Origin: a virus
Direction: 5' to 3' (one strand)
IMG/VR virus record: IMGVR_UViG_3300032288_005424
Length of the DNA stretch: 64,000 nucleotides
A program made the position numbers and the translations under genes. Positions 10,659 to 63,355 of this stretch are shown piece after piece. Below the pieces are notes generated by a model. It saw only the letters and a program-made list of their open reading frames with translations. It ran no database searches and was not told the DNA's origin. Position 1 is the first letter of the stretch, and each line of letters opens with the position of its first letter.

Positions 10659-10672
10659 GGTACATTAAACTT
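10659..10672 (+). promoter_or_regulatory. class-2 -10-like box (TGgTACATT) ending 6 nt before the ATG
   Basis: TTTTTTGGGTACATTAAACTT then ATG; the same architecture recurs at 13709 and 29146. Confidence 0.4.
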
Positions 10673-10846
10673 ATGAAAGGACAGTTTATAATTATAGACC
10701 TCAGAACCATGGACTTCATGAAGAACGAGGAGGGCCGCATGAACTTCTATGATACGCTAGACGATGCTCTGCTTGTATGTGGAATGTATGAATTTGAAAA
10801 TGCATGGGTTGTCCAACTCGTCCATAACCATCAAGAAAGAGATTAG
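10673..10846 (+). CDS. small hypothetical protein
   Basis: 58-aa ORF starting at MKGQFIIIDL, directly after the TACATTAAAC box. Confidence 0.4.
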   Translation: MKGQFIIIDLRTMDFMKNEEGRMNFYDTLDDALLVCGMYEFENAWVVQLVHNHQERD

Positions 10847-10863
10847 AGAGATAAACCTAGAAG

Positions 10864-11283
10864 ATGACATTAGCAGAGCTACACGAACTTTGGCGGATGG
10901 GAATCATTGGAGACCAGGAACTCATCCGTATCCAGATAGACCGCATCATGGGCAAGAGCCAACACGCGGGGACCTGGACCGGCCATGGGCTTGAACTTGT
11001 CGGACTCCGAATAACCGATTCAACCGGCTTAGACTCCGGACTCCGGGTTGAAATGGAAGCCAAGGGACCGACCGCAACCCTGAAGGCCGGGGCATTTGGG
11101 CTCAAGAACAATCGGGTCCGGTGCGATTGTGTGGTTCCAACCTGGATGATGGAGAGTCCGGATACCCTAAAGAGCCTGCTTGAAAACCGGCTCATTGTTC
11201 TTTTTGGGCACTTTACCTCCGGGGGAGAATCTGGCCCCGGTAGAGGGACCGGCAAATACGACCCAATTACTGGCTACGTGTAG
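10864..11283 (+). CDS. hypothetical protein (GC-rich island)
   Basis: 139-aa ORF at ~60% GC; its 3' end overlaps the first copy of a ~40-bp direct repeat. Confidence 0.4.
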   Translation: MTLAELHELWRMGIIGDQELIRIQIDRIMGKSQHAGTWTGHGLELVGLRITDSTGLDSGLRVEMEAKGPTATLKAGAFGLKNNRVRCDCVVPTWMMESPDTLKSLLENRLIVLFGHFTSGGESGPGRGTGKYDPITGYV

Positions 11284-11808
11284 CCCAAGCCCGGGGGAGA
11301 ATCTCTAACCGGTAGAGAGCCGGCCCAAAATTTCAATTTTTAGGTCAATTGCGGAGACCGGGAAACCCTAGGACCCGTAGATACCGAAATTGGTCCGGGA
11401 AGCCTCCTCCTGGCCATGGGGATTTCGGAAAAAAGTAAAGTGCTGCGGCCGTCCTCCTGGAGTACTTTTATTACCTCGGCAAGGTCACTCCCGGGGCACC
11501 GCCAGGCAGCCTGGGGGCCACTACCGGGGTCACCTGGGGGCTACTACCGGAGTCAGCCAGGCACTGCCCTGGGGCTGCTCCTGGGGTCACTGCCCGGGTC
11601 ACAGTTCCCGGTTACCCAGACCGGTCCGGGGCAAGGTCCGCCGGGCCGAAACTTGCAAGCAGCCGGGCAGGCGGAACCTCGCGAGACCCGGCAGGTCTGT
11701 ACAGACCTGTCAGCAGACCTGTCAGACGTTGCGGTTGGCTGAACAGACGTTGCGGTTTGCGGGGTCAGATACCGCGGTCTAGCTCGGTCTCGAGAACCTG
11801 GAACCAGG
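11284..11808. repeat. GC-rich non-coding region with tandem imperfect direct repeats
   Basis: Direct repeat CCGGGGGAGAATCT..CCGGTAGAG.GCCGGC at 11221 and 11291; CTACCGGGGTCACCTGGGGG / CTACCGGAGTCAGCCAGG / CTCCTGGGGTCACTGCCCGGGTCAC; CAGACCTGTCAG x2; CAGACGTTGCGGTT x2. Confidence 0.5.
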
Positions 11809-12156
11809 TTGGAGTATAAGAAGTTATTACTTAAATCCAGAAAAAAGATGTTATTGGAAAGTTTAGTTGCAGAATTCTTCAGGATTCTCGAGCGGTCTGG
11901 TCGGGACTGGCACCGGATCCGTTGGGCAATCCGCGGGCTGGAATCCGAAATCCGGCGTAGTGCTCACGGCCAACCCTGGTCCGAGGAGCTTGAAGAATAC
12001 CTTATCTTCCGGATTGGGGAGGCGCTGACCATTGCCCAAAGGGCGGCTGTTGCAAGGGAGGAGTTTGAATGGGCGCATGAAATTGCGATCAGGCTCCGGG
12101 AACTTGGCCACGATTTAGAAAAAACCTTAATAGACAACAATGCAGAAACAGATTGA
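11809..12156 (+). CDS. hypothetical protein
   Basis: 115-aa ORF with intermediate GC. Confidence 0.4.
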   Translation: MEYKKLLLKSRKKMLLESLVAEFFRILERSGRDWHRIRWAIRGLESEIRRSAHGQPWSEELEEYLIFRIGEALTIAQRAAVAREEFEWAHEIAIRLRELGHDLEKTLIDNNAETD

Positions 12157-12157
12157 C

Positions 12158-12319
12158 ATGATAGACCTCATTCTCGAGCGGGCGCTGGACCGCCATGGTC
12201 TAATAGACTGGACTTGGATAGACCACGAACTCGCAAAGAAGGGAGCAACGGTTGAGAGACGGGTCTTACACAAGCGGGTCAAGGCTCTGCTCGCGACCAG
12301 GGCCAAACGGCGTTGGTAG
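12158..12319 (+). CDS. small basic hypothetical protein
   Basis: 53-aa ORF (MIDLILERALDRHGL...) whose ATG overlaps the upstream stop (TGACATG). Confidence 0.3.
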   Translation: MIDLILERALDRHGLIDWTWIDHELAKKGATVERRVLHKRVKALLATRAKRRW

Positions 12320-12360
12320 AATATAATAACCTATCTCTAAAAAAATAAAAGAAAAAGAAT

Positions 12361-12846: not shown

Positions 12847-12940
12847 CGATCCCAGCCCAAAAAGGTTGGGATTTTTTTTTTAAAAAAAGTGAAAATAAAT
12901 TTTTTTGTTTGAGAAATTTTGGTTATATTTGCTTTATCAA
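12847..12940 (+). promoter_or_regulatory. terminator-promoter cassette A (host sigma-A type)
   Basis: ATCCCAgcccaaaaaggTTGGGAT hairpin plus T-run, then AAAAAGTGAAAATAAATTTTTTTGTTTGAGAAATTTTGGTTATATTTGCTTTATCA (TTTG then TAnnTTTG). Confidence 0.6.
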
Positions 12941-12953
12941 ACTTCAACAAACC

Positions 12954-13427
12954 ATGCTTAATCACACCACATTTCCAGCCGCTCTCCTTGCCGGCAACTC
13001 CCGTCTCACCATCACCAATCCAGCGACCGGTCAATGGATCAAGGTCAAGATGAAGCGTCGCAAGGACCGCGAAACCGGCAAGCCGGGTAATTGCTACTTC
13101 CTGTCGCTTGCGCTCTTGCAGGACGGGGACCTTGGCCACCGCTACGTCGGAGCCTACTTCGCGGATTCGGGCCGATTCAAGCCGGGTCGCGATGCCTCGG
13201 CCAGAGAAGTTCAGATCGCCGAATTCCTGATCCGTGCCGTTCGTAATCCGCAACTGTTGCAGGCTGCAGAGATCGAGCACTGCGGTAAATGTTTTGCCTG
13301 CGGCCGGACCCTAACCGTGCCGGAAAGTATCCGCTCGGGCTGGGGACCTGAATGTTTTACCCGCCAGTTCGGAGACCTCAGCCTCCGACCGCTTGCCGAG
13401 TTCGGATTACTTGACCCAATCGGGTAA
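12954..13427 (+). CDS. hypothetical protein (GC-rich)
   Basis: 157 aa starting MLNHTTFPAALLAG, 14 nt after the -7 box; CxxC pair (HCGKCFACG). Confidence 0.5.
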   Translation: MLNHTTFPAALLAGNSRLTITNPATGQWIKVKMKRRKDRETGKPGNCYFLSLALLQDGDLGHRYVGAYFADSGRFKPGRDASAREVQIAEFLIRAVRNPQLLQAAEIEHCGKCFACGRTLTVPESIRSGWGPECFTRQFGDLSLRPLAEFGLLDPIG

Positions 13428-13708
13428 TCCGGCCCGGCCGGGGCCGGACTCCCTAGTAAAGAGTACAATAATTTCATTAATTAAAACCATAAAATCATGA
13501 AGAAGTTAATTCAAAGATTCCTATTCGGAACCCCAATCCAGGGCGAGACGGTTGACCTAAGCGTTGGCAAGCCCAGAATTCAGAGCACTTGCGAACCTGC
13601 GGAGAAGGCAAGCTTCAATGAGGTATTCCAAAACGTGCACCGCGAATTACAGGCCGCAGCCGCAGAACGACTTGGGGTCAGGGGATAATCCAATCCCTTC
13701 GAGGATTG

Positions 13709-13722
13709 GGTATATTAAACCT
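13709..13722 (+). promoter_or_regulatory. class-2 -10-like box (GGGTATATTAAAC) ending 6 nt before the ATG
   Basis: Same architecture as 10659 and 29146; preceded by hairpin CCAATCCcttcgaGGATTGG. Confidence 0.4.
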
Positions 13723-13980
13723 ATGAATACGCCCAATCAACCCGAAAAAGAAAAGATACTCTATGACCTAACCGGCTTAGCCGCCAGCCTGGTCGCCGGA
13801 GGAATCTCTAGAAATCAGCCCGATATTCTGCTCATAGGTAAGATCTTAACCGTAAGCATCGGAGCCCTGGACTCAGAAGCCGGCAAGGAGAAATTAGAAG
13901 AATTCCTTGTTCAGATTCACAATGCGAGAGAGGAAGAAGAAGAAGTGAGAAAGATGTTAAAAGACCTGGGTATTGGGTAA
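13723..13980 (+). CDS. hypothetical protein
   Basis: 85-aa ORF beginning MNTPNQPEKEK. Confidence 0.45.
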   Translation: MNTPNQPEKEKILYDLTGLAASLVAGGISRNQPDILLIGKILTVSIGALDSEAGKEKLEEFLVQIHNAREEEEEVRKMLKDLGIG

Positions 13981-14230
13981 GATAACAATAATAAAAGATT
14001 ACAACTGGTGGAGGAAGTAACAAGAGTTACCAACTGACTGGAGTAAAGGATTCTACGGGTAAAAAGTCAGAGCCCGCTTGAGAGAATCGTCGGAGCAACA
14101 CCGAACTCCACCGCAAAATGATAAATTGGTTTGGTTGATTGATTCAGCAATGGGAGACTCGCAAGGTCTCCTTTGTTGGTTATTGAGTATATTAGTAATT
14201 ATCATTAACTCCTAAATAAAAAGAACCCTT

Positions 14231-14383
14231 TATGAATCCATTAATTCAAACATTTAAAGTACTATACAACTACGCCAAAGAAGAACCTCGTGATTTCGTA
14301 TTATCAATCGCCTTCATGATATTAATGATATTCATTGTTTGGGCGAGCCTATGGGGTCATGCAATAATTAGCGGCACCGTTTA
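14231..14383 (+). CDS. small membrane protein
   Basis: 50-aa ORF with one TM helix (LSIAFMILMIFIVWASLW); TATATT box at 14187-14192. Confidence 0.3.
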
Positions 14384-14461
14384 AAATTTAGGACATGAAT
14401 AATAAAGACATAGTAATAGATGACGTCTTGATTGGATAGACATTAAATCAATAGATATACC

Positions 14462-14707
14462 ATGGAAAAAATAAGTTGGGAACCGGTAAAGGACAGACAC
14501 TGCCACGGCCGTTGCGAGCTAGGCGAGCTATGGATCCGTTTGGACCGTGAGGGTAAAGTAAGCGGAATATACACGATGTTCGGCGAGACCAAGAAATGGT
14601 GTCCGGAATCCGAGGAAGAAGAAACCCTTGTTGGAGCAAAGGTAATCTGCGAATTACTCTTAGCTGGCGAGATCGCGGCCAGAAAAATAGAGAAAATTAT
14701 TCAATAA
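14462..14707 (+). CDS. small hypothetical protein
   Basis: 81-aa ORF. Confidence 0.4.
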   Translation: MEKISWEPVKDRHCHGRCELGELWIRLDREGKVSGIYTMFGETKKWCPESEEEETLVGAKVICELLLAGEIAARKIEKIIQ

Positions 14708-14746
14708 AAATTGTCAGGTGTCAAGTTTCTGTATTATATTTACAAT

Positions 14747-14887
14747 ATGGAAAATAACAAAGACCTAAAACCAGAACCCAAACAGGAAAAGCCAGAACCT
14801 TGCAAGCACGAACGCTATTACATTGCGGTCCGCCACGTGAGCGGACTTGTTGTAAGAAGGTGTTCAATTTGCGGAGTGAGAGTTTAA
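14747..14887 (+). CDS. small zinc-ribbon-like protein
   Basis: 46-aa ORF (CKHERYY...CSICG) preceded by GTGTCAAGTTTCTGTATTATATTTACAAT promoter; shorter than the ORF-track cutoff. Confidence 0.35.
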   Translation: MENNKDLKPEPKQEKPEPCKHERYYIAVRHVSGLVVRRCSICGVRV

Positions 14888-14908
14888 TTAAGACATTATC
14901 CAAAGAGA

Positions 14909-15020
14909 GCCCGGCCAATGGTCGGGCTTTTTGTTAATAACTATGTTAATAACTTTTTTTAAAAAAAGTGAAAATAAATTTTTTGGTTTGAGAAATTTGT
15001 TTTATATTTGCTCTATCAAT
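14909..15020 (+). promoter_or_regulatory. terminator-promoter cassette B
   Basis: AGCCCGgccaatggtCGGGCT plus T-run, then AAAAAAAGTGAAAATAAATTTTTTGGTTTGAGAAATTTGTTTTATATTTGCTCTATCA. Confidence 0.6.
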
Positions 15021-15049
15021 TATCAATTAACCCTTAAAAAACCAAACTT

Positions 15050-15427
15050 ATGCAAATCCAATTAACCCACCAAGAATCAGAACAGATGTTCCACAACGCT
15101 CTTTGCAACGGCTTAGGCTACATGAGCGGCTACGGTCTAGAATTCGAGTACAGCGACGAGCAGTACAGCGCAGCAAAGACAAAACTTCAGAGCCCATGCT
15201 TCGAGGACGTGCTCATGCAAATCCTACGCGACGGCGGTAGTCTAACTTTCGTAGACGTTGAATGCGACGGCGAATACACTCGCTCGGTCTCGTTAGCTGA
15301 TGTCCACGACAGAGTTCAAAAAACTCCAGCTCGCTTCTTGTTAGACATGATCAATGAGAACGACGATGCTGAGACAGCGGATGTAATTCTACAGACGGTG
15401 TTCTTCGAAGAGATCATCTTCGGATAA
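15050..15427 (+). CDS. hypothetical acidic protein
   Basis: 125-aa ORF followed by a long GC-rich hairpin containing ACTCCCTAGT. Confidence 0.5.
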   Translation: MQIQLTHQESEQMFHNALCNGLGYMSGYGLEFEYSDEQYSAAKTKLQSPCFEDVLMQILRDGGSLTFVDVECDGEYTRSVSLADVHDRVQKTPARFLLDMINENDDAETADVILQTVFFEEIIFG

Positions 15428-15562
15428 TCCACGGCCAGCCGGCCGGGCCAGTAGGCCACTCCCTAGTACGGGTGGTCCGCTGGCCCGGACCTTTAGAGCC
15501 AAAACGGGGTCGGACTCCCTAGTAAAGAATTTAAAATCAATAACCAATTAAATCAAAAGATC

Positions 15563-15769
15563 ATGCAACAAGAAATAATTAAAACCTTAACTGAATTAAA
15601 AAGAAACAAGAAGTACATCGCGCTCTCGCTCCACCCAGCAATCGGTAACTCAACGATTTCCAAGGAGGATAACAGACTCTTCATCAACGAAGGTCGAGGC
15701 GGTAAGTGGGAAGGAGTATCGGAAAGTTTCTACGACGAGATGGTCGCTAAGTTCGATTCACGTAGCTAG
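15563..15769 (+). CDS. small hypothetical protein
   Basis: 68-aa ORF. Confidence 0.4.
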   Translation: MQQEIIKTLTELKRNKKYIALSLHPAIGNSTISKEDNRLFINEGRGGKWEGVSESFYDEMVAKFDSRS

Positions 15770-15780
15770 AAAATATTTTT

Positions 15781-15835
15781 CACAAAAGTGAAAATAAATT
15801 TTTTTGTTTAAGAAAAAAGTGTTATATTTACAATC
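15781..15835 (+). promoter_or_regulatory. promoter C (sigma-A type) for the sigma-factor gene
   Basis: CACAAAAGTGAAAATAAATTTTTTTGTTTAAGAAAAAAGTGTTATATTTACAATC. Confidence 0.55.
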
Positions 15836-15867
15836 TCAATTATTAATCAATCAAAAACCCAACAATT

Positions 15868-16587
15868 ATGTCAAAAAGATTTGAAACAGCGGATGGCCTA
15901 CCGCAATACTTCAAGAGTATTGAATCAGTTGCCAAACCACTAAGCAAGACGGAGGAGCTTGCGCTAGCGGATAGAATCCAAGCGGGAGACGAGCGCGCGC
16001 TCAATGCTCTGGTAACCGCGAATCTAAAGTTCGTCGTAACCCTTGCGAATAAGTTTATCGGTATGGGATTACCGATCGATGACTTGATTCAAGAAGGAAA
16101 CGCTGGTCTAATTGAAGCGGCTCGTAAGTTTACATCAGATAAGGATGTTAAGTTTATTACCTATGCCCAGTTCTGGATTCGCAAGCGCTTGAATCTTGCT
16201 CTTTGCGATTACGGCAGAATCGTTAGGCTTCCGGTAAATCAAGAGTACGACATTTACAAGCGCAAGATGAAGGGAGAAGAAATCAATCTCTCAACCGTAC
16301 AGATCGATAAGCCTGTTGGCGAGGACGGTGACAATACAATCGGCGATATAATGCTTCGTACAGACTTTGCCGATCCGTTCGAGAAGGAAGAAACCAATCG
16401 TGTCTTGACCAGATTACTTTCAAAGTTAAGACCGACCGAAAGGGAGATTGTTGAATTGTTTTACGGTCTCGTGGGAGATGGCCTTTCTACGAAAGAAATC
16501 GCAGAGCAAGTTGGAAAGACCCCAGCTGAAGTTAACCGCGCGTTGAAGGTCGCACGTGCACAAATGAGAAAGGAGGTAAGCAAATGA
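15868..16587 (+). CDS. sigma-70 family RNA polymerase sigma factor (regions 2, 3, 4)
   Basis: Region 2 (NLKFVVTLANKF...DDLIQEGNAGLIEAARKFTSDKDVKFITYAQFWIRKRL) and region 4 (TEREIVELFYGL...LSTKEIAEQVGKTPAEVNRALKVARAQMRK). Confidence 0.7.
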   Translation: MSKRFETADGLPQYFKSIESVAKPLSKTEELALADRIQAGDERALNALVTANLKFVVTLANKFIGMGLPIDDLIQEGNAGLIEAARKFTSDKDVKFITYAQFWIRKRLNLALCDYGRIVRLPVNQEYDIYKRKMKGEEINLSTVQIDKPVGEDGDNTIGDIMLRTDFADPFEKEETNRVLTRLLSKLRPTEREIVELFYGLVGDGLSTKEIAEQVGKTPAEVNRALKVARAQMRKEVSK

Positions 16588-16799
16588 ATACGATAGAACA
16601 CGCAAACACGATGGCTGCCATGGCAGTCGATATCCTCTACTCTGAGGGTGATCCATTCAAGGAGCCAATAGATAAATCAAGACTCCAGTGGGAGATTCGT
16701 CAGGCCACCCTGAAGAAACTTGTGACTGAAGATTCAGACCTATTGGACGAAGACGAATTCCAAGCCTGCGTTAATAACTCTAAAATTCAAAAGGCATGA
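16584..16799 (+). CDS. small hypothetical protein
   Basis: 71-aa ORF whose start overlaps the sigma-gene stop (ATGA). Confidence 0.4.
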   Translation: MNTIEHANTMAAMAVDILYSEGDPFKEPIDKSRLQWEIRQATLKKLVTEDSDLLDEDEFQACVNNSKIQKA

Positions 16800-17092
16800 G
16801 CGTAGTAAGAATAATAAACGATACGGTCCACCTGTTCGAGAATTCGGGTAACCTGATAAGAACCATAACAAGCGGCGCGGTCTCAGCACAGATCTCTCCT
16901 GACGAGAGTCGTATTGTGCTAGTCACGGAGTCAGGGACCGCCCAGCTTTGGGACGTAAGAGGTAATTACCTACAGGATATTACGAGCGGAGCGGTCGATG
17001 CCCGATTCTCAGGAGACCTAATCATCGTTACCAAAGAGTACGGGCCGGATGAAGTTAGGGATGGGCGAGGAAATCTGCTCAGAACAATTTAA
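16796..17092 (+). CDS. repeat-containing small protein
   Basis: Internal repeats GNLIRTITSGAVSAQ / GNYLQDITSGAVDAR / GNLLRTI. Confidence 0.4.
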   Translation: MSVVRIINDTVHLFENSGNLIRTITSGAVSAQISPDESRIVLVTESGTAQLWDVRGNYLQDITSGAVDARFSGDLIIVTKEYGPDEVRDGRGNLLRTI

Positions 17093-17094
17093 CC

Positions 17095-17145
17095 GGTCTA
17101 AAAATAAATTTTTCCGTTTAAGAAAAAAGTATTATATTTACAATC
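17095..17145 (+). promoter_or_regulatory. promoter D (sigma-A type)
   Basis: AAAAATAAATTTTTCCGTTTAAGAAAAAAGTATTATATTTACAATC. Confidence 0.55.
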
Positions 17146-17167
17146 TCAACCCTAAAAATTTAAAATC

Positions 17168-17425
17168 ATGCGCTACAAATTAGGAAACAAATGGTCAGAC
17201 AACTTTGATTACGATGGAATGCTCGAGACCGGAGCACAGGTTACGGAAGAAACCCCGCTTGCAGACCTGCAGAAATTGTTTGACTCTTTCGAAGATGTCA
17301 ATTACCACACGGAATCCGAGCCGCTATGGGAAGCCATACAGGGCAAGAAGGCCGGGCAAGAAGAATACTTCAAGAAGAATCTAGCAGAGTTCAAGGCTCG
17401 CTGCTCAGCCTGCCTAGCAGAGTAA
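17168..17425 (+). CDS. small hypothetical protein
   Basis: 85-aa ORF. Confidence 0.45.
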   Translation: MRYKLGNKWSDNFDYDGMLETGAQVTEETPLADLQKLFDSFEDVNYHTESEPLWEAIQGKKAGQEEYFKKNLAEFKARCSACLAE

Positions 17426-17450
17426 AAGAATCTATCAAGAAAAAACAAAA

Positions 17451-17482
17451 GGGACCGAGGGTTAATCTTTCGGTCCCTTTTT
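17451..17482 (+). terminator. rho-independent terminator
   Basis: GGGACCGAgggttaatctTTCGGTCCC plus T-run, followed by a double TATAAT box (17485-17495). Confidence 0.6.
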
Positions 17483-17529
17483 AGTATAATATAATAGAGC
17501 CTAATTGGGTAAAAATAAATAATCAAACC

Positions 17530-17793
17530 ATGTCAGACCTAAATAAGTATTCCAAAATCCTGCTAGACCTCGTCTATCTTAGACAGACGGACTACGACGC
17601 TTTCATGAATCGCCTGTACGAAGCCTTGACCGGCGAGTTCAAGGATGTAATCAATGATTCAACCCCGGTCGAGGAGAAGTCTCAAGCAATATGGACCATG
17701 ATCAAGCATTTTGAAAAGAACGAAGAATTCGAGAAGTGCGCCGACCTGAAGAAATTAGCGGATCAATTACCTAAATCAAAAGATCATGTGTAA
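17530..17793 (+). CDS. small hypothetical protein (EEFEKCADL motif)
   Basis: 87-aa ORF sharing a motif with 2466..2663. Confidence 0.45.
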   Translation: MSDLNKYSKILLDLVYLRQTDYDAFMNRLYEALTGEFKDVINDSTPVEEKSQAIWTMIKHFEKNEEFEKCADLKKLADQLPKSKDHV

Positions 17794-17864
17794 GGTAATC
17801 CTAATAGTCGCAGCTTTCGTGTTGATTGAAGAATGGATCGTTCGCAAGAAAGCCTAAAACTTTT

Positions 17865-17925
17865 TTTGAAAAAAGTTTAAAATAAATTTTTTGGTTTCGC
17901 GGATTTTTGTTATATTTGCTCTATC
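17865..17925 (+). promoter_or_regulatory. promoter E (sigma-A type)
   Basis: TTTTTTTGAAAAAAGTTTAAAATAAATTTTTTGGTTTCGCGGATTTTTGTTATATTTGCTCTATCA. Confidence 0.55.
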
Positions 17926-17949
17926 ATTAACCAACTAAAATTTTAAATC

Positions 17950-18336
17950 ATGCAGAAATTAATTCTAGTCCGCTTCGGAAATCAACCGAACCCAATCGTC
18001 TCAATGGCTTTAAAACCCCATCTCGTTGGCAACGCGTTCGCCGGTCCAATCCCGGGCGCGATCATGTCGGTCTTTAACACCGAGTCCACGAAAGAGGAGA
18101 TCGCTGAAGACCTCAAAGAAACAGGTGCCTACTTCATGCTAATGCGAGCTGATGAAGCCACAATCAATCTTCCGGAAGAGTTGATGGAAGTAATTGCGCA
18201 AATCGTCGGTGAGGAACCTGGACGCGCGACAGACTCCAGTGAATTGACTATTGATGATATATTGGACCTCATCAACAAGAACGGTATTGAGTCCCTAACG
18301 CCCGAACAGAGACGTATCCTGGATAATCGCCATTAG
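17950..18336 (+). CDS. hypothetical acidic protein
   Basis: 128-aa ORF. Confidence 0.45.
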   Translation: MQKLILVRFGNQPNPIVSMALKPHLVGNAFAGPIPGAIMSVFNTESTKEEIAEDLKETGAYFMLMRADEATINLPEELMEVIAQIVGEEPGRATDSSELTIDDILDLINKNGIESLTPEQRRILDNRH

Positions 18337-18377
18337 GCGATTATCCCACTGTTAAATATAATCTAAACCCCATTTAT

Positions 18378-18593
18378 ATGAAGGAGATTGTAAGACTATA
18401 CTTATACACGGACGGCAAGGAAACTTGTATTAAAGACCCGCAAGAGATGATAAGACTTCTTTCAGACCCGCAGGAAGAAATAGACCTGGATTACCATGAT
18501 GCGAGAGGTTTCGCAAAGGTTGCAACCAGCAAAGACCTGATTGGAGAGACCGTCCAGGTTGGAGAAGTAGAGATTACTATTATTAACCATTAA
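18378..18593 (+). CDS. small protein, tandem paralog 1
   Basis: IRLLSDPQEEIDL...DLIGETVQVGEVEITII. Confidence 0.45.
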   Translation: MKEIVRLYLYTDGKETCIKDPQEMIRLLSDPQEEIDLDYHDARGFAKVATSKDLIGETVQVGEVEITIINH

Positions 18594-18605
18594 TCGAATT
18601 AGACC

Positions 18606-18830
18606 ATGCAAACACCAATAAACATTATAGATTGTATCGAGACCGTGGACAATTGGGGAGGTCAAGAAAAGTATTCAACTCAAGAAACGTTCAGACTCTT
18701 AAGTAATCCGGACGAATGGACAGACGACCAAATCTTTCGCGGCCCTGCTGGCGAGAGGTATTTTATAGACGACCTCATCGGAAAGAAAGTCACAGTCGGT
18801 CCAATGACATTTACCGTTCAAGAAGACTAA
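18606..18830 (+). CDS. small protein, tandem paralog 2
   Basis: FRLLSNPDEWTDD...DLIGKKVTVGPMTFTV, similar to 18378..18593. Confidence 0.45.
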   Translation: MQTPINIIDCIETVDNWGGQEKYSTQETFRLLSNPDEWTDDQIFRGPAGERYFIDDLIGKKVTVGPMTFTVQED

Positions 18831-18867
18831 AGATATTTCGAGAAATCGAGATTGGCGACAGGCTAAG

Positions 18868-18955
18868 GCTGCTCAGAAACGGGCAGCTTTTTTTTTGAAA
18901 AAAGTTTAAAATAAATTTTTTAGTGTCAAGTTTTTGTTGTATATTTGCTCTATCA
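18868..18955 (+). promoter_or_regulatory. terminator-promoter cassette F
   Basis: GCTGCtcagaaacggGCAGC plus T9, then GAAAAAAGTTTAAAATAAATTTTTTAGTGTCAAGTTTTTGTTGTATATTTGCTCTATCA. Confidence 0.6.
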
Positions 18956-18980
18956 TTAACCACCTAAATTATTAATCAAC

Positions 18981-19499
18981 ATGGCAAAGAAAATCCAAAC
19001 CACCGAACGCGCTAGCGGAACCTCATTCCACGGAACAGAATTCAGAGCGAGCGCAAACGAAATTATTGCAATCCTTGGCGAACCAACATACAATGACAAC
19101 AACGGCAGAGATAAGGTAAATCTTGAATGGGTATGCGAGACGGACGAAGGAGACGTCTTTACGATCTACGATTGGAAAGAGTATCGTCAAATCGGAATGG
19201 ACGAAAAGATTGATTGGCATATCGGAGGACACAGCGGCCGAGTAACTAAGAAGGCTGTGATGGAGCTTGAGAAGTTTGGAGTGAAGCCTTTGGAAGATAT
19301 GCTATCATTTAACGAATTTTTAAAAGAATCCAAAAAGCACAAACTAAGTATAGGCGATTTGATTGAATTTGATAACGCCGAAGCTAGAATTTATAATGTT
19401 TATACGACTAGAGGCGGTAAAGCCATGTACACAGTCGGCAGCTCAAAACATGGAACCATTGAGATTGAAGCCGAAGACATAGAAAAACAGATAAGGTAG
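18981..19499 (+). CDS. hypothetical protein
   Basis: 172-aa ORF. Confidence 0.5.
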   Translation: MAKKIQTTERASGTSFHGTEFRASANEIIAILGEPTYNDNNGRDKVNLEWVCETDEGDVFTIYDWKEYRQIGMDEKIDWHIGGHSGRVTKKAVMELEKFGVKPLEDMLSFNEFLKESKKHKLSIGDLIEFDNAEARIYNVYTTRGGKAMYTVGSSKHGTIEIEAEDIEKQIR

Positions 19500-19517
19500 A
19501 TTGATTGGATTACAGAA

Positions 19518-19605
19518 GCTGCTCAGAAATGGGCAGCTTTTTTTTTGAAAAAAGTTTAAAATAAATTTTTTTATTTGAGAAATTTGTTGTATATTTACAC
19601 TGTCA
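19518..19605 (+). promoter_or_regulatory. terminator-promoter cassette G (no ORF directly downstream)
   Basis: GCTGCtcagaaatggGCAGC plus T9, then GAAAAAAGTTTAAAATAAATTTTTTTATTTGAGAAATTTGTTGTATATTTACACTGTCA; about 100 nt follow without an ORF before the next cassette. Confidence 0.5.
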
Positions 19606-19708
19606 ATCAAACACTGACGGGACGGTTCGGAACAAGGAAGCGGGAGGTATACTCCGACCTGCACCAGACCTAGCGAGTTGTTAACAACCGAATGTTAATA
19701 ACTTTTTT

Positions 19709-19765
19709 TAAAAAAAGTGAAAATAAATTTTTTGGTTTGAGAAATTTGTTTTATATTTACAATCT
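19709..19765 (+). promoter_or_regulatory. promoter H (sigma-A type)
   Basis: AAAAAAAGTGAAAATAAATTTTTTGGTTTGAGAAATTTGTTTTATATTTACAATC. Confidence 0.55.
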
Positions 19766-20035: not shown

Positions 20036-20047
20036 ACCCCACACATC

Positions 20048-20233: not shown

Positions 20234-20283
20234 AATAGATAAAACTGTAGTACATTAGTCTTAACAATCAAATCAAAAGTAAT

Positions 20284-21414: not shown

Positions 21415-21470
21415 TCGGAAACTTCAGCACATAATTTAGTATATTAACCCAATAAAATAAATCAATAGAC

Positions 21471-24105: not shown

Positions 24106-24400
24106 GAGATTATTTATCAGGCCGGGTCCGTGGACTCTCGAGACATTCCCGGGCCCGGTGTCCCGCGGTGTCCGTATATGTCCCGAGTCGTGGGGCCCTC
24201 GCGACCCAGGGCAGCAGGTCCCAGGGCCCGGGGCCGGGCTCGCCGTACTCCGTAGTCCCCAGGTCCGCACAGTAGGTACCCCTTGGGCGTGGCTGGCCGG
24301 TTTACTCCCTAGTCCCGGGTAGGACCGCAGAGGGCCGTGGCAGCCCCCGGACCGGTGGTCGGCTGGGGCCCGGCTATCGGGCCCGGCTTGAGCGAGATTG

Positions 24401-24415
24401 GGTATACTAGCCTAT
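24401..24415 (+). promoter_or_regulatory. class-2 box GGTATACTAG 7 nt before a 29-aa membrane peptide ORF
   Basis: GGTATACTAGCCTAT then ATG (24416) MKRAGIRFDWAWPIVLVVVLASIIIFFIA. Confidence 0.35.
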
Positions 24416-24632
24416 ATGAAAAGAGCAGGGATAAGATTTGATTGGGCATGGCCTATAGTGCTGGTGGTAGTGTTGGCTTCTATAATAATCTTTTTTATAG
24501 CATAGGTAGACTGGGTAGGTTTACTAGACTAGGTAGGTTTAGTAGCTAGAGTAATCTCTTTACTTTTGGGTGTAGGGCGCGCCTCGGTGTTTTTGAGCGA
24601 GAAAAGGTCCACGGCCCGGCGAGCTCGGGTCT

Positions 24633-24647
24633 GGGTATAATAGACTC
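24633..24647 (+). promoter_or_regulatory. class-2 box GGGTATAATAG just upstream of the tRNA-like element
   Basis: TATAAT at 24635-24640; a TSS ~7 nt downstream would precede the element at 24651. Confidence 0.4.
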
Positions 24648-24650
24648 TAT

Positions 24651-24772
24651 AGTCAGGTGGCGGAACGGTAGACGCAACAAGTAAGCTAATGGAAAGTGTA
24701 CAATTCCATGAGGCCATTAATTCCGAGATGTAAGAGAAGTACATCGTGCCCGTTCGAATCGGGTCCTGACCA
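24651..24772 (+). ncRNA. tRNA-like element with a ~35-50 nt insertion in the anticodon region (pseudo-tRNA or unusual RNA)
   Basis: 5' AGTCAGG-TG-GCG-GAACGGTAGA-CGC (acceptor, U8, D-arm with GG) and 3' GCCCG-TTCGAAT-CGGGT-CCTGACC-A (T-arm plus acceptor pairing 6/7); the middle is 72 nt instead of 22-39. Confidence 0.3.
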
Positions 24773-24791
24773 CTAATACAAATAGATCAAC

Positions 24792-29120: not shown

Positions 29121-29146
29121 GACCGGTCCATGTGACCGGTTTTTTT
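29121..29146 (+). terminator. terminator
   Basis: GACCGGTCcatgtGACCGGT plus T7; followed by TGTACATTAAC box and a 35-aa membrane peptide ORF (29160..29267, MKRLNKWTFWDWAIIFIFSAWIVGMTWILMNAPLN). Confidence 0.55.
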
Positions 29147-29271
29147 GTACATTAACTTCATGAAAAGACTTAATAAATGGACGTTCTGGGATTGGGCAAT
29201 CATATTCATCTTTAGTGCATGGATAGTTGGCATGACCTGGATTCTAATGAACGCTCCGTTAAACTAACGCA

Positions 29272-32466: not shown

Positions 32467-32473
32467 CTTTTTT

Positions 32474-32491
32474 GGTATAATAGGTCTATCT
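32474..32491 (+). promoter_or_regulatory. class-2 box TTTTGGTATAATAGG 10 nt before the sigma-gene ATG
   Basis: TATAAT at 32476-32481. Confidence 0.4.
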
Positions 32492-36329: not shown

Positions 36330-36362
36330 CCTTTTGCCCAATATTTAGTATAATAAGCCAGT

Positions 36363-40076: not shown

Positions 40077-40080
40077 TTTT

Positions 40081-42889: not shown

Positions 42890-42903
42890 TATATTAATAA
42901 CCC

Positions 42904-48783: not shown

Positions 48784-49155
48784 ATGAGTCATCATGTCAA
48801 TCTGAAAAGTGCAAAGTTAATTCTTGGTTGGTGTATTGAAAAATACGGTCCCAGCGAATACGCTAATTTAAAAACTCTAAAGATCAAACTTGATTCTAAT
48901 TTAGAGTACATTGGCCAGTACATGCAATACAACAATACAATTACTCTGAACCCAAGGTATCACAGGTCCTTATTGGGTTGGTGTTCAACCGTCATTCATG
49001 AGTACACGCATTTTCAACAGGACATGAATAAGTACCATGAATATCGGACGAGTTATGAAAATCATCCCTATGAGCTAAGTTCAAATAATCGAAGTAACCG
49101 CGACAAACTTGAGGCCAAACGATTCGTTCTAGGGAAACTTCGATCTAAAAAGTAG
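48784..49155 (+). CDS. HExxH motif small protein
   Basis: VIHEYTHF. Confidence 0.4.
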   Translation: MSHHVNLKSAKLILGWCIEKYGPSEYANLKTLKIKLDSNLEYIGQYMQYNNTITLNPRYHRSLLGWCSTVIHEYTHFQQDMNKYHEYRTSYENHPYELSSNNRSNRDKLEAKRFVLGKLRSKK

Positions 49156-49197
49156 TATAATAATAACTCAATCTTTAACTTAAAAAAACAAACAGAC

Positions 49198-58018: not shown

Positions 58019-58701
58019 TGGAAATAACTTTCATATCTGATACTCACTGGTTGGTGAGAGATGCACAAGACTGCAGAGACATGAATGATCTTTTACCGGG
58101 TGGTCCAATTTTGGTGCATGCTGGCGACGTGAGTGGCCGAGGCACTGAGTCAGAAATTCGAAAGTTTCTTGACTGGTTTAGTAAGTTGCCTTACACGCAT
58201 AAGATACTAATCTCAGGAAATCATGATTTCTTTTTTGAAGTGGCCAAGCCTGATGAGGTTGAGGCCTTGATCGCAGAGTATCCTGGAATTACTTATTTGA
58301 ACGATAATGGAGTAACGATTGAGGGCATAAAGTTTTGGGGTAGTCCAGTCACGCCGTTCTTTCATAATTGGGCATTCAATAGATGGCCGAACGAAATTAA
58401 ACCTCATTGGGACCTGATTCCCGAAGGAATTGATGTTTTGATAACTCACGGCCCTCCAAGGGGAATATTGGACTTCACAGAATACGATCGTGACCATGTC
58501 GGCTGTCCGACCCTACTTGATAAGGTTAAGCAGATAAAACCAAAGGTTCACGTGTTCGGCCACATTCATGAGGCTAGGGGAAAGAAGGAAATTGACGGAA
58601 CCGTTTTTATCAATGCGTCAATGGTTACCTTAAGATACGAACTCCGATACGAAACTCCATACACTGTGGACGTTGAACCAAATTCTCAAACTTTAGTATA
58701 A
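58018..58701 (+). CDS. calcineurin-like metallophosphoesterase
   Basis: Metal-ligand motifs ISDTH, GD (VHAGDVSGRG), GNHD (ILISGNHDF), THGP and GH (VFGHIHEARG) in the canonical order. Confidence 0.65.
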   Translation: MEITFISDTHWLVRDAQDCRDMNDLLPGGPILVHAGDVSGRGTESEIRKFLDWFSKLPYTHKILISGNHDFFFEVAKPDEVEALIAEYPGITYLNDNGVTIEGIKFWGSPVTPFFHNWAFNRWPNEIKPHWDLIPEGIDVLITHGPPRGILDFTEYDRDHVGCPTLLDKVKQIKPKVHVFGHIHEARGKKEIDGTVFINASMVTLRYELRYETPYTVDVEPNSQTLV

Positions 58702-58708
58702 TAACCGT

Positions 58709-58939
58709 ATGAAAAATAAATTAAAACAAATCGCAATATTCGTCCTGTGCTTAGCGATAGGTTTCGAATCAATACATTTGGCTTTCTGGCTAATGAACAT
58801 GCCTAGCACTCCGCTATTTTGGCTTGGAATCCTGGTCCTTACGGCAATTGCCTTTATCTCAGGAACCTATGTTTGGCAAAAGGTTGGAGCTTGGATCGAA
58901 AAAAAGTTCGAAGAAACTGAGAATTCTAATCATCATTAA
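58709..58939 (+). CDS. small two-TM membrane protein
   Basis: Two hydrophobic helices. Confidence 0.4.
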   Translation: MKNKLKQIAIFVLCLAIGFESIHLAFWLMNMPSTPLFWLGILVLTAIAFISGTYVWQKVGAWIEKKFEETENSNHH

Positions 58940-61385: not shown

Positions 61386-61681
61386 TTAAAGGTTCTGAAC
61401 AAAATCGAAAACAAAGGGACGTTGAACTTGCGCGACTCGTTCAAGAGTTCACTGAGAAGCTAGAACATGATCCTTACCAGCCTGGTGTAGTACACCCTGA
61501 AGTCTATCCTGATGATTTACAGGAGGTAATTGAGGATCTTTTCTTCGTTAGAGGATTTTCCGAGGCAACCATCAAGGTCAGTAAGAATCTGGACGGAATG
61601 TCAATTCAGGTTCAAGTTTTAAACCGGGGCGGAATAAATAATAAAAATTCCTCAACACTGGATGAAACTAAAGAGATTTAA
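61382..61681 (+). CDS. small hypothetical protein
   Basis: Start MIKGSEQNRK overlapping the upstream stop (ATGA). Confidence 0.4.
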   Translation: MIKGSEQNRKQRDVELARLVQEFTEKLEHDPYQPGVVHPEVYPDDLQEVIEDLFFVRGFSEATIKVSKNLDGMSIQVQVLNRGGINNKNSSTLDETKEI

Positions 61682-62234
61682 CGAATTCATAGCGATAAAT
61701 GAATCAATTCACGAATTTACAGTAGACGAGCTACTTGTCTTGATAGATGGTGAAATTTATCAACCTTACGAGTTTGACGTAGACCTGGCCTGGGAGCATG
61801 AACCTGCTGACCCGGAAGTTGGCATACCTAACTCATACTATTATGTTGAAAATTATGAACTATATCAAGTAACCAAAGTTTCTAAATTAGTAGATCCGGA
61901 AATCAAGAATGAACTTATGGATTTACTGTCTCCTCCAAGCGATGAAATCTCAACAGAGCTTGCTGGTTTCGGATTCAGAGAAGAGGCTAGAGAAGACCGT
62001 ATCACTGACATAGCTTTCTCCGGCGATTGGCAACAAAACTGGAAAGACTTGGCCGGTGATGAGCTAAAGGCTTTTTCGAAACAGTTTATTCAACTTTACG
62101 AGACTAACCAGCTTAAGACGATCGTCGGTAACCTTACGGATGCTCTACAAACAGAAGTAAATAATGTTGAATCTGATTACGAGGATCATTCTGACGACGG
62201 TTATGATTACGACGATTATCACGATAGATATTAA
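61662..62234 (+). CDS. CTS-like N-terminus acidic protein
   Basis: MKLKRFNEFIAINES. Confidence 0.5.
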   Translation: MKLKRFNEFIAINESIHEFTVDELLVLIDGEIYQPYEFDVDLAWEHEPADPEVGIPNSYYYVENYELYQVTKVSKLVDPEIKNELMDLLSPPSDEISTELAGFGFREEAREDRITDIAFSGDWQQNWKDLAGDELKAFSKQFIQLYETNQLKTIVGNLTDALQTEVNNVESDYEDHSDDGYDYDDYHDRY

Positions 62235-62273
62235 ATCTGCCCAAATAAATAACCTAAAATTACACGAATCTAC

Positions 62274-62837
62274 ATGAAACTTTTAAAGTTCACAGAATTT
62301 GTTAACGAATCACAAGTTAACGAAGCACAACTAAAGGACAAAGCAATAATTGCTAAGTTGGAAAGAATTCACGAAATCAAAGAAAGATTGAAAGAGCTAA
62401 CTACTGAAACTAAAGCTATTGAAGGAGAGCTAAAGGAGTTCGATGCATCAGTTAAACCCATCTTTGATGCAATGAAAGTTCTTAACGATAAATTGGCAAC
62501 TACTGAGAAGTACGTAATGAAAATTACAAGATACGGTGGAGAAGGAACTGCTGTTGCTTACGGAAAGGCCGTTGAGCAAGCTCTTACTCAAGTTGACGAA
62601 GCTGCTCAAGCAATCATCAATGAATGTGTTAGACAGCATACTAGCATTACTCAAGTTAAACACTCTTTTGAAATTAACAAATTGGACGAGGGCAAATTAA
62701 CTGACAAGGCTAAAGCTGTAATCGCTAAAATTTCAGATAAGATTAAAGCGATAGTTACTAAATTCAAGAGTTTCTTTGACTCTAAGATCTCTAAGATCGA
62801 TGCAGCTAACGAAAAGCTTGCAGCTATCAAAAAATAA
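62274..62837 (+). CDS. CTS-like N-terminus coiled-coil protein
   Basis: MKLLKFTEFVNESQVNEA. Confidence 0.5.
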   Translation: MKLLKFTEFVNESQVNEAQLKDKAIIAKLERIHEIKERLKELTTETKAIEGELKEFDASVKPIFDAMKVLNDKLATTEKYVMKITRYGGEGTAVAYGKAVEQALTQVDEAAQAIINECVRQHTSITQVKHSFEINKLDEGKLTDKAKAVIAKISDKIKAIVTKFKSFFDSKISKIDAANEKLAAIKK

Positions 62838-62845
62838 TTGAACCT

Positions 62846-63325
62846 ATGCTCAAGCCACTAGTTCAGAGCTTCAATGAGTACACTATCAACGAGGCCAAAT
62901 CAAATCATCCAGCTAAATATAAAGCGCCTGAGGGCAGTTCCCGAGACTCTAAGTTAGACAAGGCACAGGCTCTACTGAAGGCCGGTAAAAAGGAGGAGGC
63001 TTATAAGTTGCGTGATGAAATGGAAAAGGCCGAAAGATCTAAACTGGATTGGAAGAACACTCCGCGTAAGGATTCACAAGTTGATGAAGCTAAAAAGGCT
63101 GGTAGAAACTTAAGCAAAGAAACTCTTGCAAAGATCAGAGCGGTTGCAACCAAAAAAGGTTACTCATTCGCCGATCTCAAAAGAGAATACGTCAAGGGCC
63201 TAGGTGCTTTCTACTCTTCCGGTTCAAGACCTGGAATGACGGCTCATCAATGGGCAATGGCAAGAGTAAATTCAGCTTCTCCAAGTAAATCTTGGGCAAA
63301 CGTAAAAAAGGTTGGAAAAAAATAA
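62846..63325 (+). CDS. CTS-like N-terminus basic protein
   Basis: MLKPLVQSFNEYTINEA. Confidence 0.5.
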   Translation: MLKPLVQSFNEYTINEAKSNHPAKYKAPEGSSRDSKLDKAQALLKAGKKEEAYKLRDEMEKAERSKLDWKNTPRKDSQVDEAKKAGRNLSKETLAKIRAVATKKGYSFADLKREYVKGLGAFYSSGSRPGMTAHQWAMARVNSASPSKSWANVKKVGKK

Positions 63326-63340
63326 AACCCTTTTTCAAAA

Positions 63341-63355
63341 AGTAGGTATAATAGC
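63341..63355 (+). promoter_or_regulatory. class-2 box AGTAGGTATAATAGC with no ORF downstream (leader of the tRNA cluster or a small RNA)
   Basis: TATAAT at 63347-63352; ~190 nt without a convincing ORF, then hairpin 63547-63576, then tRNA-Phe. Confidence 0.35.

Follow-up and report, generated by a model that had tools for sequence, protein, structure and literature searches.

The window analysed here, a stretch of 64,000 nucleotides (nt) from the viral record IMGVR_UViG_3300032288_005424 (IMG/VR), carries upstream of many of its genes a short motif with the core TAYAWTA, which we designate class B and which is very probably a phage-specific promoter. Comparison of the window with 103 related IMG/VR loci (labelled L0xx or L1xx; 104 sequences and 1.94 Mb with the window) strongly supports this promoter reading. 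We put at roughly 0.6 the probability that class B is a family of phage promoters without a -35 element, read by the host core RNA polymerase together with a phage-encoded factor of the sigma-70 family, most likely the SigA-like sigma encoded at 15868-16587, as part of a middle-type transcription cascade. At about a third to a half of the sites, the mRNA would start on the start codon or within a few bases of it.

Abundance and consensus of the class B motif

Class B is defined by the hexamer TAYAWT, taken as positions -12 to -7. In the form GTAYAWTA it occurs 22 times in the window, with 20 of the matches on the + strand, against 5.48 ± 2.44 expected from 100 dinucleotide-preserving shuffles, of which none reached 22 (the maximum was 13). 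An earlier note on this DNA had listed 15 such sites; all are present where it placed them, and seven sites can be added to its list (1419, 1496, 9116, 13464, 14188, 20251 and 58697). The working set used below (n = 22) consists of the 20 + strand matches to GTAYAWTA and two one-mismatch variants (12322 and 24403), and leaves out the - strand matches at 10529-10536 and 50794-50801.

The extended consensus of these 22 sites, counted back from the hexamer, is T(-5) T(-4) K(-3) R(-2) G(-1) T A Y A W T A R, i.e. TTKRG-TAYAWTA-R. In promoter numbering, the G directly before the hexamer (-13) is invariant and A is found at -6 in 22/22 sites, while -8 is A in 13 and -5 is G in 7. Every site has T-12, A-11 and T-7 (TAnnnT), the mark of a -10 element of the sigma-70 family, and the hexamer variants seen at orthologous sites (TATAAT, TATATT, TACATT, TACAAT, TAAAAT, TAAATT, TATACT and TATTAT) are all TAnnnT as well.

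Searches for a -35 element were negative. A sigma-70 consensus scan of 9-29 kb, which was not enriched in general (29 vs 22.6), picked up no class B site with a TTGACA-like element 16-18 bp upstream. There was no information peak from -50 to -8 among 206 non-redundant class B sites, and no 5-mer was enriched at -42 to -18 among 74 family representatives. At -23 to -19 there is a faint ripple of G-rich/C-rich sequence, which probably derives from the stems of upstream terminators. In lacking a -35 element and in drawing specificity from the bases just upstream of the hexamer, class B is like the extended -10 promoters (TGnTATAAT), and a TGG-TATAAT-like sequence is found at 9/22 sites. It differs in that its invariant G-13 occupies the 'n' of TGn; moreover, -14 is A about as often as G (12 vs 9), and -15 is T in 12 sites and G in 8.

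The signatures of other sigma classes are also missing from class B sites. Neither the -35 AAC nor the -10 CGT of ECF sigma promoters is present, there is no match to the Bacteroidota sigma-A consensus (TAnnTTTG, with or without a -33 TTTG), and the T4 late box (TATAAATA near -10) is not found, the class B core being TAYAWTA. TAnnTTTG alone is not enriched in the window (55 vs 53).

That class B might be nothing but functionless, AT-rich chance matches is extremely improbable. GC content is 40-50% in the window, whose intergenic regions are AT-rich, and 5 of the 35 TAYAWTA matches on the + strand are intragenic and lack the upstream G, as such an origin would allow. Against it stand the shuffles, none of which approached the observed count closely enough to equal it, the strand ratio of 20 to 2, the conservation of the motif across orthologues, and the behaviour of permuted control motifs described below.

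Distance to the start codon and predicted leaderless mRNAs

Within the window, the distance from hexamer to ATG is bimodal, at 6-10 nt or 25-39 nt. An ATG begins 6-10 nt past the hexamer at 10/22 sites (binomial p=3.6e-6) and exactly 6 nt past it at 6/22 (1496, 10661, 13711, 29148, 40083 and 58697; p=1.4e-6, binomial with an ATG frequency of 0.017). The earlier note had argued from this geometry for leaderless mRNAs, to which these counts lend weight. Of the ten sites that it described as abutting start codons, eight have an ATG at 6-10 nt (Table 1), and the remaining two precede a tRNA-like gene (24635) and a unit without an open reading frame (ORF) (63347).

The pooled set of 104 sequences likewise peaks sharply at 6-10 nt, distances of 0-5 or 11-12 nt being almost absent, and five permuted control motifs gave no 6-10-nt peak in the same set. 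Of the pooled contexts, 58/177 are at 6-10 nt. When the downstream proteins are clustered, this spacing is found in 21 of 83 families, and 11 of these have exactly 6 nt. For the majority of leaderless families the spacing is identical or within ±1 nt (12/12 members at 8 nt, 6/6 at 6 nt, 4/4 at 10 nt and 3/3 at 9 nt; two more families have 4/5 at 6 nt and 8/9 at 7-8 nt), and three leaderless families also hold a leadered member. Within leadered families, spacing varies from 24 to 40 nt.

A holoenzyme of the sigma-70 family usually begins transcription about 7 nt past the final base of the -10 hexamer. A start about 7 nt past TAYAWT would, at 10/22 sites, fall on the A of the ATG (6-nt spacing) or at most about 4 nt upstream of it, and the products would be leaderless mRNAs or have leaders of a few nt at most; transcripts from the remaining sites would have leaders of about 18-32 nt. 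At the position 7 nt past the hexamer A is enriched, occurring at 14/22 window sites and at 120/206 pooled sites against a background of 33%. In Flavobacterium johnsoniae, transcription starts 4-5 nt after the 8-bp -7 element (PMC6847099), and since a gap of 6 nt past the hexamer is one of 4 nt past the 8-mer, +1 would again fall on the A of the ATG. The leaderless class B mRNAs are predictions that this geometry supports well.

The start codons themselves are credible for the leaderless-type genes. Met1 of the topoisomerase medium subunit aligns no more than one residue from the annotated start of T4-type gp52, signal-peptide or transmembrane-like N-termini begin at Met1 of 40095 and 58709, and alignments of the ECF-like sigma begin at query residue 10-11 and PDB chain residue 8-13.

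A comparable geometry has been described for leaderless promoters of Actinobacteria and Deinococcus-Thermus, where a TAnnnT box also stands at a fixed, short distance from the ATG and was likewise inferred from sequence (Zheng et al. 2011, PMC3160421). Leaderless genes are, by accepted practice, inferred from a TAnnnT box that precedes the start codon by about 12 bp, and at ten window sites A-11 is 10-14 nt before the ATG, in line with the operational definition of that study (a TA signal ~12 bp upstream; PMC3160421). Class B differs from those promoters in its invariant G-13 and TTKR upstream part, in being probably read by a phage sigma and not by a housekeeping sigma, and in occurring in a phage of Bacteroidota, where leaderless mRNAs are rare: 3.7% of 5' untranslated regions are shorter than 10 nt in B. 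thetaiotaomicron (PMC7366714) and 5.5% of mRNAs are leaderless in F. psychrophilum (PMC9723704). The leaderless signal was found in 1/37 Bacteroidota genomes (PMC3160421), and leaders in F. johnsoniae are longer than 10 nt in 87% of cases (PMC6847099). In the jumbo phages phiKZ and AR9, mapping of transcription start sites uncovered no transcript of the leaderless type (PMC8244752, PMC5312081).

Conservation and non-coding targets

For 15 window genes, class B is retained before the orthologues too, at protein identities of 30-98%, where the flanking sequences drift or are replaced; before the topoisomerase medium-subunit gene, for example, it has been kept in L022 and L019 where the neighbouring sequence has changed. 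Several sites lie directly 3' of terminator hairpins, and two precede units that are probably not translated. The first of these is the tRNA-like gene at 24651-24773 (+ strand), which has good acceptor, D and T arms around an aberrant centre of ~60 nt. This region was missed by ARAGORN with default settings and had no Rfam match, and ARAGORN models it only with the intron option, as a tRNA-Gly(gcc) with a 30-nt intron and a long extra arm. Class B also precedes its orthologues in L055 (same spacing) and L039 (29-nt spacer), i.e. in three diverged genomes including the window, and the 5' part of the gene is conserved in both. A - strand ORF that overlaps the tRNA-like gene (24529-24744) is probably spurious.

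The second unit (63354-63580, + strand) is ~190-220 nt long and without a credible ORF, and extends from a tandem pair of class B and a second motif (class C, below) to an intrinsic terminator, just upstream of a tRNA-Phe/Lys/Met/Trp cluster. L069, L070 and L076 share this layout, and in L070 and L076 the stem of the terminator shows compensatory changes; the unit is a candidate small RNA.

As class B precedes both the tRNA-like gene and the terminator-ended unit without an ORF, it appears to be a signal for transcription rather than translation. The rival possibility, that it acts on RNA, to load ribosomes, as an enhancer or as a point of endoribonuclease processing, has in its favour that ten sites are 6-10 nt before an ATG, a typical ribosome-binding distance, that several lie between co-directional genes with no terminator, and that Bacteroidota, which lack Shine-Dalgarno sequences, use other leader features (PMC6847099). 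But half of the sites are 25-39 nt from the ATG at distances that vary between orthologues, the tRNA-like gene and the unit without an ORF have the motif, class B often follows terminators, and its variation takes the form TAnnnT, as in DNA melting by sigma factors; we consider an RNA signal very improbable. Conservation, spacing and non-coding targets taken together point to a transcription signal, and neither to a translation signal nor to chance.

Host-type and T4-late-like motifs in the same window

Two other promoter-like classes are found in the window. Class A is a ~55-nt repeat, AAAGTGAAAATAAATTTTTT-GTTTG-N-TATATTT[GA]C (TTTG…TATATTTG), present in about 10 copies. Its architecture matches that of Bacteroidota sigma-A promoters (-33 TTTG and -7 TAnnTTTG), with an AT-rich block upstream. 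The copies are confined to the + strand of ~12.9-19.8 kb, each 18-41 nt before a small gene, and one (~15785-15831) is directly upstream of the SigA-like sigma gene. Related loci have up to 18 copies per 20 kb around that gene, and the stretch looks like a dense early region.

Class C, R-ATAAATAA, is present at 27 sites on both strands and resembles the T4 late box TATAAATA. All the - strand gene runs that have any motif have class C, and it is the only motif before - strand genes; functional class B sites in the window are confined to the + strand. Genes downstream of class C encode a peptidoglycan-binding/chitinase-like (lysis-like) enzyme, a protein with a T9SS C-terminal sorting domain (T9SS-CTD), a glycosyltransferase and an endonuclease.

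The pooled distances to the ATG differ among the three classes. Class A contexts have 18-41 nt in essentially every case; five strays are at 3-4 nt, and the range 5-17 nt is empty. For class C they are bimodal, at 6-9 nt or 17-27 nt, with 67/196 at 6-9 nt. It follows from these distributions that leaderless geometry is restricted to the two non-host classes, B and C. Class C is a candidate late class in which leaderless geometry would also be frequent.

Candidate reader of class B

Two clear sigma-70-family proteins are encoded in the window. The best solved relatives of the SigA-like sigma (15868) are primary SigA/RpoD proteins (PDB, E=1e-29), and its homologues fall into 675 metagenome clusters at E≤1e-10. 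The top 120 clusters are all at least 64% identical to it and ~240 amino acids (aa) long, and this is apparently a large, phage-borne family in metagenomes; the JGI annotation of the sigma is 'primary sigma factor'. A scan of GTDB with the sigma alignment, in which the back-translated pattern DLIQEGNxG may exclude Bacteroidota RpoD, retrieved primary sigmas of Firmicutes, Patescibacteria, Chloroflexota and others at 30-38% identity. The second protein is the ECF-like sigma at 32492-33037 (181 aa), which has regions 2 and 4 and is without region 1.2. The earlier note had counted three phage sigma factors, of which these two are solid, and had correctly placed class B in front of the gene at 32492. 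Its third, the ORF at 29272-29877 downstream of the peptide gene 29160, encodes a weak, sigma region-4-like helix-turn-helix and was not accepted as a sigma factor, having only a sub-threshold Pfam match to region 4, no match in PDB or PHROG, and an hhalign probability of 1%.

In sigma70, residues Y430, W434, R436, N383 and W433 are involved in melting of the -10 element and base-flipping, Q437, T440 and R441 read the duplex at -12/-13, and H455 and E458 read the TG of extended -10 promoters. By alignment offset to sigma70 numbering, the SigA-like sigma keeps Y430 (Y99), W434 (W103), R436 (R105) and N383 (N52), and has F102 at the position of W433. It has diverged at the duplex-reading positions (K106 at Q437, N109 at T440, L110 at R441) and at those that read TG in E. 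coli (N124 at H455, Y127 at E458). The kept and diverged residues would parallel, respectively, the canonical TAnnnT core and the non-canonical TTKRG upstream part of class B; the PDB holds no Bacteroidota sigma-A structure for such a residue comparison.

Could the host sigma-A holoenzyme, alone or with a phage co-factor, read class B as a weak or variant -7 element, making it an ordinary early class? Class B shares with the Bacteroidota sigma-A promoters (Bayley 2000; Vingadassalom 2005; Baez 2019, PMC6847099) the frame of the 8-bp element (-12 to -5 in TAnnTTTG), T-12, A-11 and T-7, and, at 6-nt spacing, the 4 nt between the 8-mer and the presumed start at the ATG. However, T-8, T-7, T-6 and G-5 are nearly invariant in host promoters (PMC6847099), whereas class B has A-6 for T throughout, an unconserved G-5 (7/22) and A or T at -8, together with an invariant G-13 outside the host consensus and no -33 TTTG. 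The same phage also carries ~10 perfect host-type promoters, and a separate motif with a spacing of its own argues for a separate reader. Because of the invariant A-6 and G-13, the unconserved G-5 and the missing -33 element, host sigma-A is probably not the reader; we judge this explanation distinctly improbable, and the earlier note's separation of class B from the host consensus appears sound. A host alternative sigma is probably not the reader either, since flavobacteria have only sigma-54 and ECF factors in this category, the boxes of which differ from TAnnnT (PMC9723704).

A phage sigma is the most plausible reader, as a textbook host-type class exists elsewhere in the window and the known alternative sigmas of Bacteroidota do not read TAnnnT, and among phage proteins the SigA-like sigma at 15868 is the best candidate, a choice that we make with moderate confidence. 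The general proposal of phage sigma control in the earlier note can therefore be kept and narrowed to this protein. Its analogy with T4 gp55 and TATAAATA does not carry over to class B; it fits R-ATAAATAA (class C) of the same window, and a gp55-like factor is not what the evidence favours.

It is unlikely, though less so than a host factor, that some other phage product reads class B: the ECF-like sigma at 32492, the sigma-like protein at 29272, a gp55-type factor, or an RNA polymerase encoded outside the window. The window is perhaps ~1/4 of the genome (related contigs reach ~270 kb) and contains a second solid sigma gene, and the presence of T4-type genes (topoisomerase II) makes a gp55/gp33-type apparatus elsewhere possible. 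On the other hand, ECF sigmas normally need a -35 'AAC' and a -10 'CGT' (PMC9723704, motif SM6), and class B has neither. The ECF-like phage sigma, which has no region 1.2 and whose signature is missing from its supposed targets, suits class B poorly; A-11 and T-7, both invariant, point to a sigma with regions 1.2 and 2, and 15868 has both regions. In addition, 32492 and 29272 are themselves behind class B and would have to autoregulate, and the T4-late-like box of this phage forms the separate ATAAATAA class.

Several points weigh against assigning class B to the SigA-like sigma, or against the promoter reading as a whole. Promoter function, start point and timing are all things that we infer, and the link to 15868 is drawn from gene order and residue reasoning; alternative readers would be the ECF-like sigma, the product of a gene beyond the 64-kb window, or host sigma-A in a modified form. 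Spacings of 8-10 nt would need a start 8-10 nt past the hexamer or a leader of 1-4 nt. Several leaderless-type genes are inside longer co-directional gene runs and may additionally be translated from polycistronic RNA. Finally, three loci with a sigma 54-59% identical to that of the window (L046-L048) are not enriched in class B over the sampled 20 kb, which may mean a changed specificity or a wrong link between sigma and motif. The sigma of L046-L049 differs at the positions equivalent to R441 and V454, and there is little or no class B enrichment nearby; this co-variation is weak, being confounded by phylogeny and the small region sampled. A search for a replacement motif in L046-L048 found TATATAA-rich upstream regions, a result too noisy for interpretation.

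If the SigA-like sigma is the reader, host sigma-A would read class A, and the sigma would be made early, as its gene is behind a host sigma-A-type promoter. On the host core RNA polymerase it would then switch on class B, the targets of which would include DNA topoisomerase II, the ATPase, the primase-like protein, small membrane peptides, the tRNA-like RNA, the ECF-like sigma 32492 and 29272. Either 32492 or 29272 might in turn read class C. By its gene content and its place in the sigma cascade, class B would be a middle or delayed-early class.

Comparison with known phage systems

Phage sigma-family proteins that redirect host core RNA polymerase to promoters unread by the host sigma are known from SPO1 (gp28, then gp33/34) and T4 (gp55). 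The window phage would be like these cascades in that one promoter class drives the gene for the next factor. The SPO1 middle promoters differ in having both a -35 and a -10 element, of unrelated sequence, and T4 gp55 differs in reading TATAAATA, which resembles class C ATAAATAA and not class B. In contrast to those systems, the link between sigma and class B is here a proposal drawn from gene context and sequence. We know of no systematic use of leaderless mRNAs in the SPO1 or T4 cascades. Single leaderless phage mRNAs, such as lambda PRM-cI, which starts with AUG, are isolated cases under the host sigma, whereas leaderless geometry is found here in about a third of two whole promoter classes.

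The host-type class is essentially always leadered and about a third of class B and ATAAATAA sites are of leaderless type, and on this ground it is conceivable that the hand-over from host sigma-A to phage sigma is coupled to a change in translation, with the virus programming genome-wide leaderless initiation of the 70S type. We offer this tentatively, as an idea that we would sooner doubt than adopt. If true, it would be virus-programmed leaderless initiation in a phylum that lacks Shine-Dalgarno sequences and is rarely leaderless, and leaderless use may keep phage translation running when canonical initiation is shut down or remodelled.

The ingredients (phage sigma cascades, promoters without a -35 element and leaderless mRNAs) are known elsewhere. 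What is new is their combination, one or more phage-specific classes built for leaderless expression in Bacteroidota beside a host-type early class that is essentially never leaderless. Apart from crAss-like phages, the transcription signals of Bacteroidota phages are essentially uncharted, and their host phylum has an atypical sigma-A and no Shine-Dalgarno sequences. The present analysis gives a map of three promoter classes (host-type, TAYAWTA and ATAAATAA) for a widespread freshwater jumbo-phage family, a sigma-cascade hypothesis with a named candidate sigma, and the prediction that many phage mRNAs begin at or a few bases from the AUG. If confirmed, the class B motif would improve start-codon calling in these phages and could supply orthogonal promoter/sigma parts for Bacteroidota genetics, and one would then have to ask why it is the phage-specific promoters, and not the host-type ones, that are suited to leaderless translation.

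Class B sites and their downstream genes

The sites are listed in Table 1 with the other features discussed. Among the genes behind class B are those for the medium subunit of topoisomerase II, an ATPase of RecA/helicase-like type, a protein with a weak likeness to primases, an HDAC-like protein and sigma factors; many others encode small membrane peptides, and there are RNA genes as well. The earlier note had associated class B with late-type genes and with genes for proteins carrying a C-terminal sorting tag, a description that does not suit this replication, sigma and membrane-peptide content; the T9SS-CTD protein at 49455, the sole such protein in the window, has ATAAATAA directly upstream.

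Table 1. Promoter-like sites and the SigA-like sigma gene in the window. Distances run from the end of the hexamer to the ATG; L numbers denote related loci.
Feature	Site	Coordinates	Strand	Motif	nt to ATG	Downstream gene or context	Retention in related loci
Class B	1419	1414..1426	+	CTAAG-TATAATA-T		Upstream copy of tandem pair, 77 nt before site 1496	
Class B	1496	1491..1510	+	TTTGG-TATAATA	6	ATG 1508, in frame with ORF 1451-2527 (HDAC-like); leaderless geometry	
Class B	7346	7341..7353	+	TTGAG-TATATTA	30	ATG 7382	
Class B	9116	9111..9123	+	TGTGG-TACAATA	30	ATG 9152	L025, L026, L051
Class B	10661	10656..10675	+	TTGGG-TACATTA	6	ATG 10673 (57 aa); T-rich hairpin tail just before motif	
Class B variant	12322	12313..12329	+	Overlapping registers TTGG-TAGAAT or GAA-TATAATA	33-39	ATG 12361 (74-aa membrane protein)	
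Class B	13464	13459..13471	+	AAGAG-TACAATA	27	ATG 13497	
Class B	13711	13706..13725	+	TTGGG-TATATTA	6	ATG 13723 (85 aa)	L025, L026; leadered in L031
Class B	14188	14183..14195	+	TTGAG-TATATTA	38	ATG 14232; motif after terminator-like hairpin 14152-14172	
Class B	17485	17480..17492	+	TTTAG-TATAATA	39	ATG 17530; motif directly 3' of hairpin GGGACCGA...TCGGTCCC-TTTTT; one ATAAATAA (class C) motif between site and ATG	L025, L026, L031, L033, L034, L039, L040, L043
Class B	20251	20246..20258	+	TGTAG-TACATTA	27	ATG 20284 (P-loop/RecA-helicase-like ATPase)	L025, L031, L033, L034, L037, L039, L040
Class B	21440	21435..21447	+	TTTAG-TATATTA	25	ATG 21471 (372 aa)	Seven diverged loci; spacer varies
Class B variant	24403	24398..24418	+	TTGGG-TATACTA	7	ATG 24416 (29-aa hydrophobic peptide)	
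Class B	24635	24631..24773 (motif + gene)	+	CTGGG-TATAATA		Hexamer 9 nt from 5' end of tRNA-like gene	
Class B variant	29148	29143..29267	+	TTTTG-TACATTA	6	ATG 29160 (35-aa membrane peptide); motif after hairpin GACCGGT...ACCGGTC-TTTTTTT	
Class B	32476	32471..33037	+	TTTGG-TATAATA	10	ATG 32492, ECF-like sigma gene (181 aa)	10 nt in all orthologues
Class B	36349	36344..36365	+	TTTAG-TATAATA	8	ATG 36363 (200 aa, phrog_14949, weak primase-S match)	7-8 nt, even in L068 (30% protein identity)
Class B	40083	40078..40097	+	TTTGG-TATAATA	6	ATG 40095 (152 aa); topoisomerase II large subunit (40590) downstream	L005, L020, despite unrelated upstream sequence
Class B	42890	42885..42906	+	ATTAG-TATATTA	8	ATG 42904, topoisomerase II medium subunit	8 nt in 12/12 distinct orthologous contexts
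Class B	49156	49151..49163	+	AGTAG-TATAATA	36	ATG 49198 (56-aa lipoprotein-like)	L004, L017, L018, L020, L070, L076
Class B	58697	58692..58711	+	TTTAG-TATAATA	6	ATG 58709 (76-aa membrane protein)	6-7 nt, L103 included (34% protein identity)
Class B	63347	63342..63580 (motif + unit)	+	GTAGG-TATAATA		In tandem with ATAAATAA; then ORF-less unit and intrinsic terminator	
Class A		12880..19765	+	-7 boxes at 12924, 15003, 15823, 17133, 17911, 18940, 19590, 19752; also 12641			
Class C examples		4327, 23022, 24974, 33059, 38906, 48769, 49430	+	R-ATAAATAA			
Class C examples		4315, 7319, 9079, 24117, 48741	-	R-ATAAATAA			
SigA-like sigma		15868-16587	+			239 aa, regions 1.2, 2 and 4; candidate reader of class B	

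The ORF calls at 1451, 7322, 9035, 10637 and 13564, which take the first possible start, overshoot by 12-53 codons, and the motif-anchored, in-frame ATGs (1508, 7382, 9152, 10673 and 13723) are more likely to be the truer starts. Two hydrophobic ORFs on the + strand (24416-24505 and 29160-29267; 29 and 35 aa), both starting with MKR and both at leaderless distance from class B, are possibly small membrane peptides skipped by standard gene calling.

The phage family and its host

The 64-kb window is 40-50% GC and gene-dense, with genes mostly on the + strand, and encodes five tRNAs and the large and medium subunits of a T4-type DNA topoisomerase II. A megablast search of GenBank phages with 20 kb gave no match at the DNA level. 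The nearest GenBank records by protein are 'huge phage' genomes of 460-640 kb (topoisomerase identity 51-59%), with a GC content of 24-29%; the largest belong to the Mahaphage clade, for which infection of Bacteroidetes has been predicted (PMC7162821). IMG/VR holds many close relatives of the window, several of them on contigs of ~250-270 kb. On account of these relatives, we take the window to be a portion of an uncultured jumbo-phage family, the host of which is very probably a member of Bacteroidota. In two of the 'huge phage' relatives, GTAYAWTA has no consistent strand bias (8 vs 10 in LR745206; 14 vs 7 in LR756500), and in LR745206, the only one in which contexts were inspected, it has no TTKRG prefix upstream; these relatives are too distant to inform on class B.

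GC content is ~50% in the blocks 8000-12000 and 20000-28000, compared with ~40% elsewhere in the window, which may reflect mosaic or acquired segments, and a serine-recombinase (resolvase) gene (23482-24270, - strand) lies inside the second block. There are also three candidates for counter-defence or host takeover: a Tad6-like anti-Thoeris protein (60358-61047; E=9e-22), an Acb1/2'-5' ligase-like protein with a weak match (44677-45228), and the histone-deacetylase-domain protein at 1508-2527.

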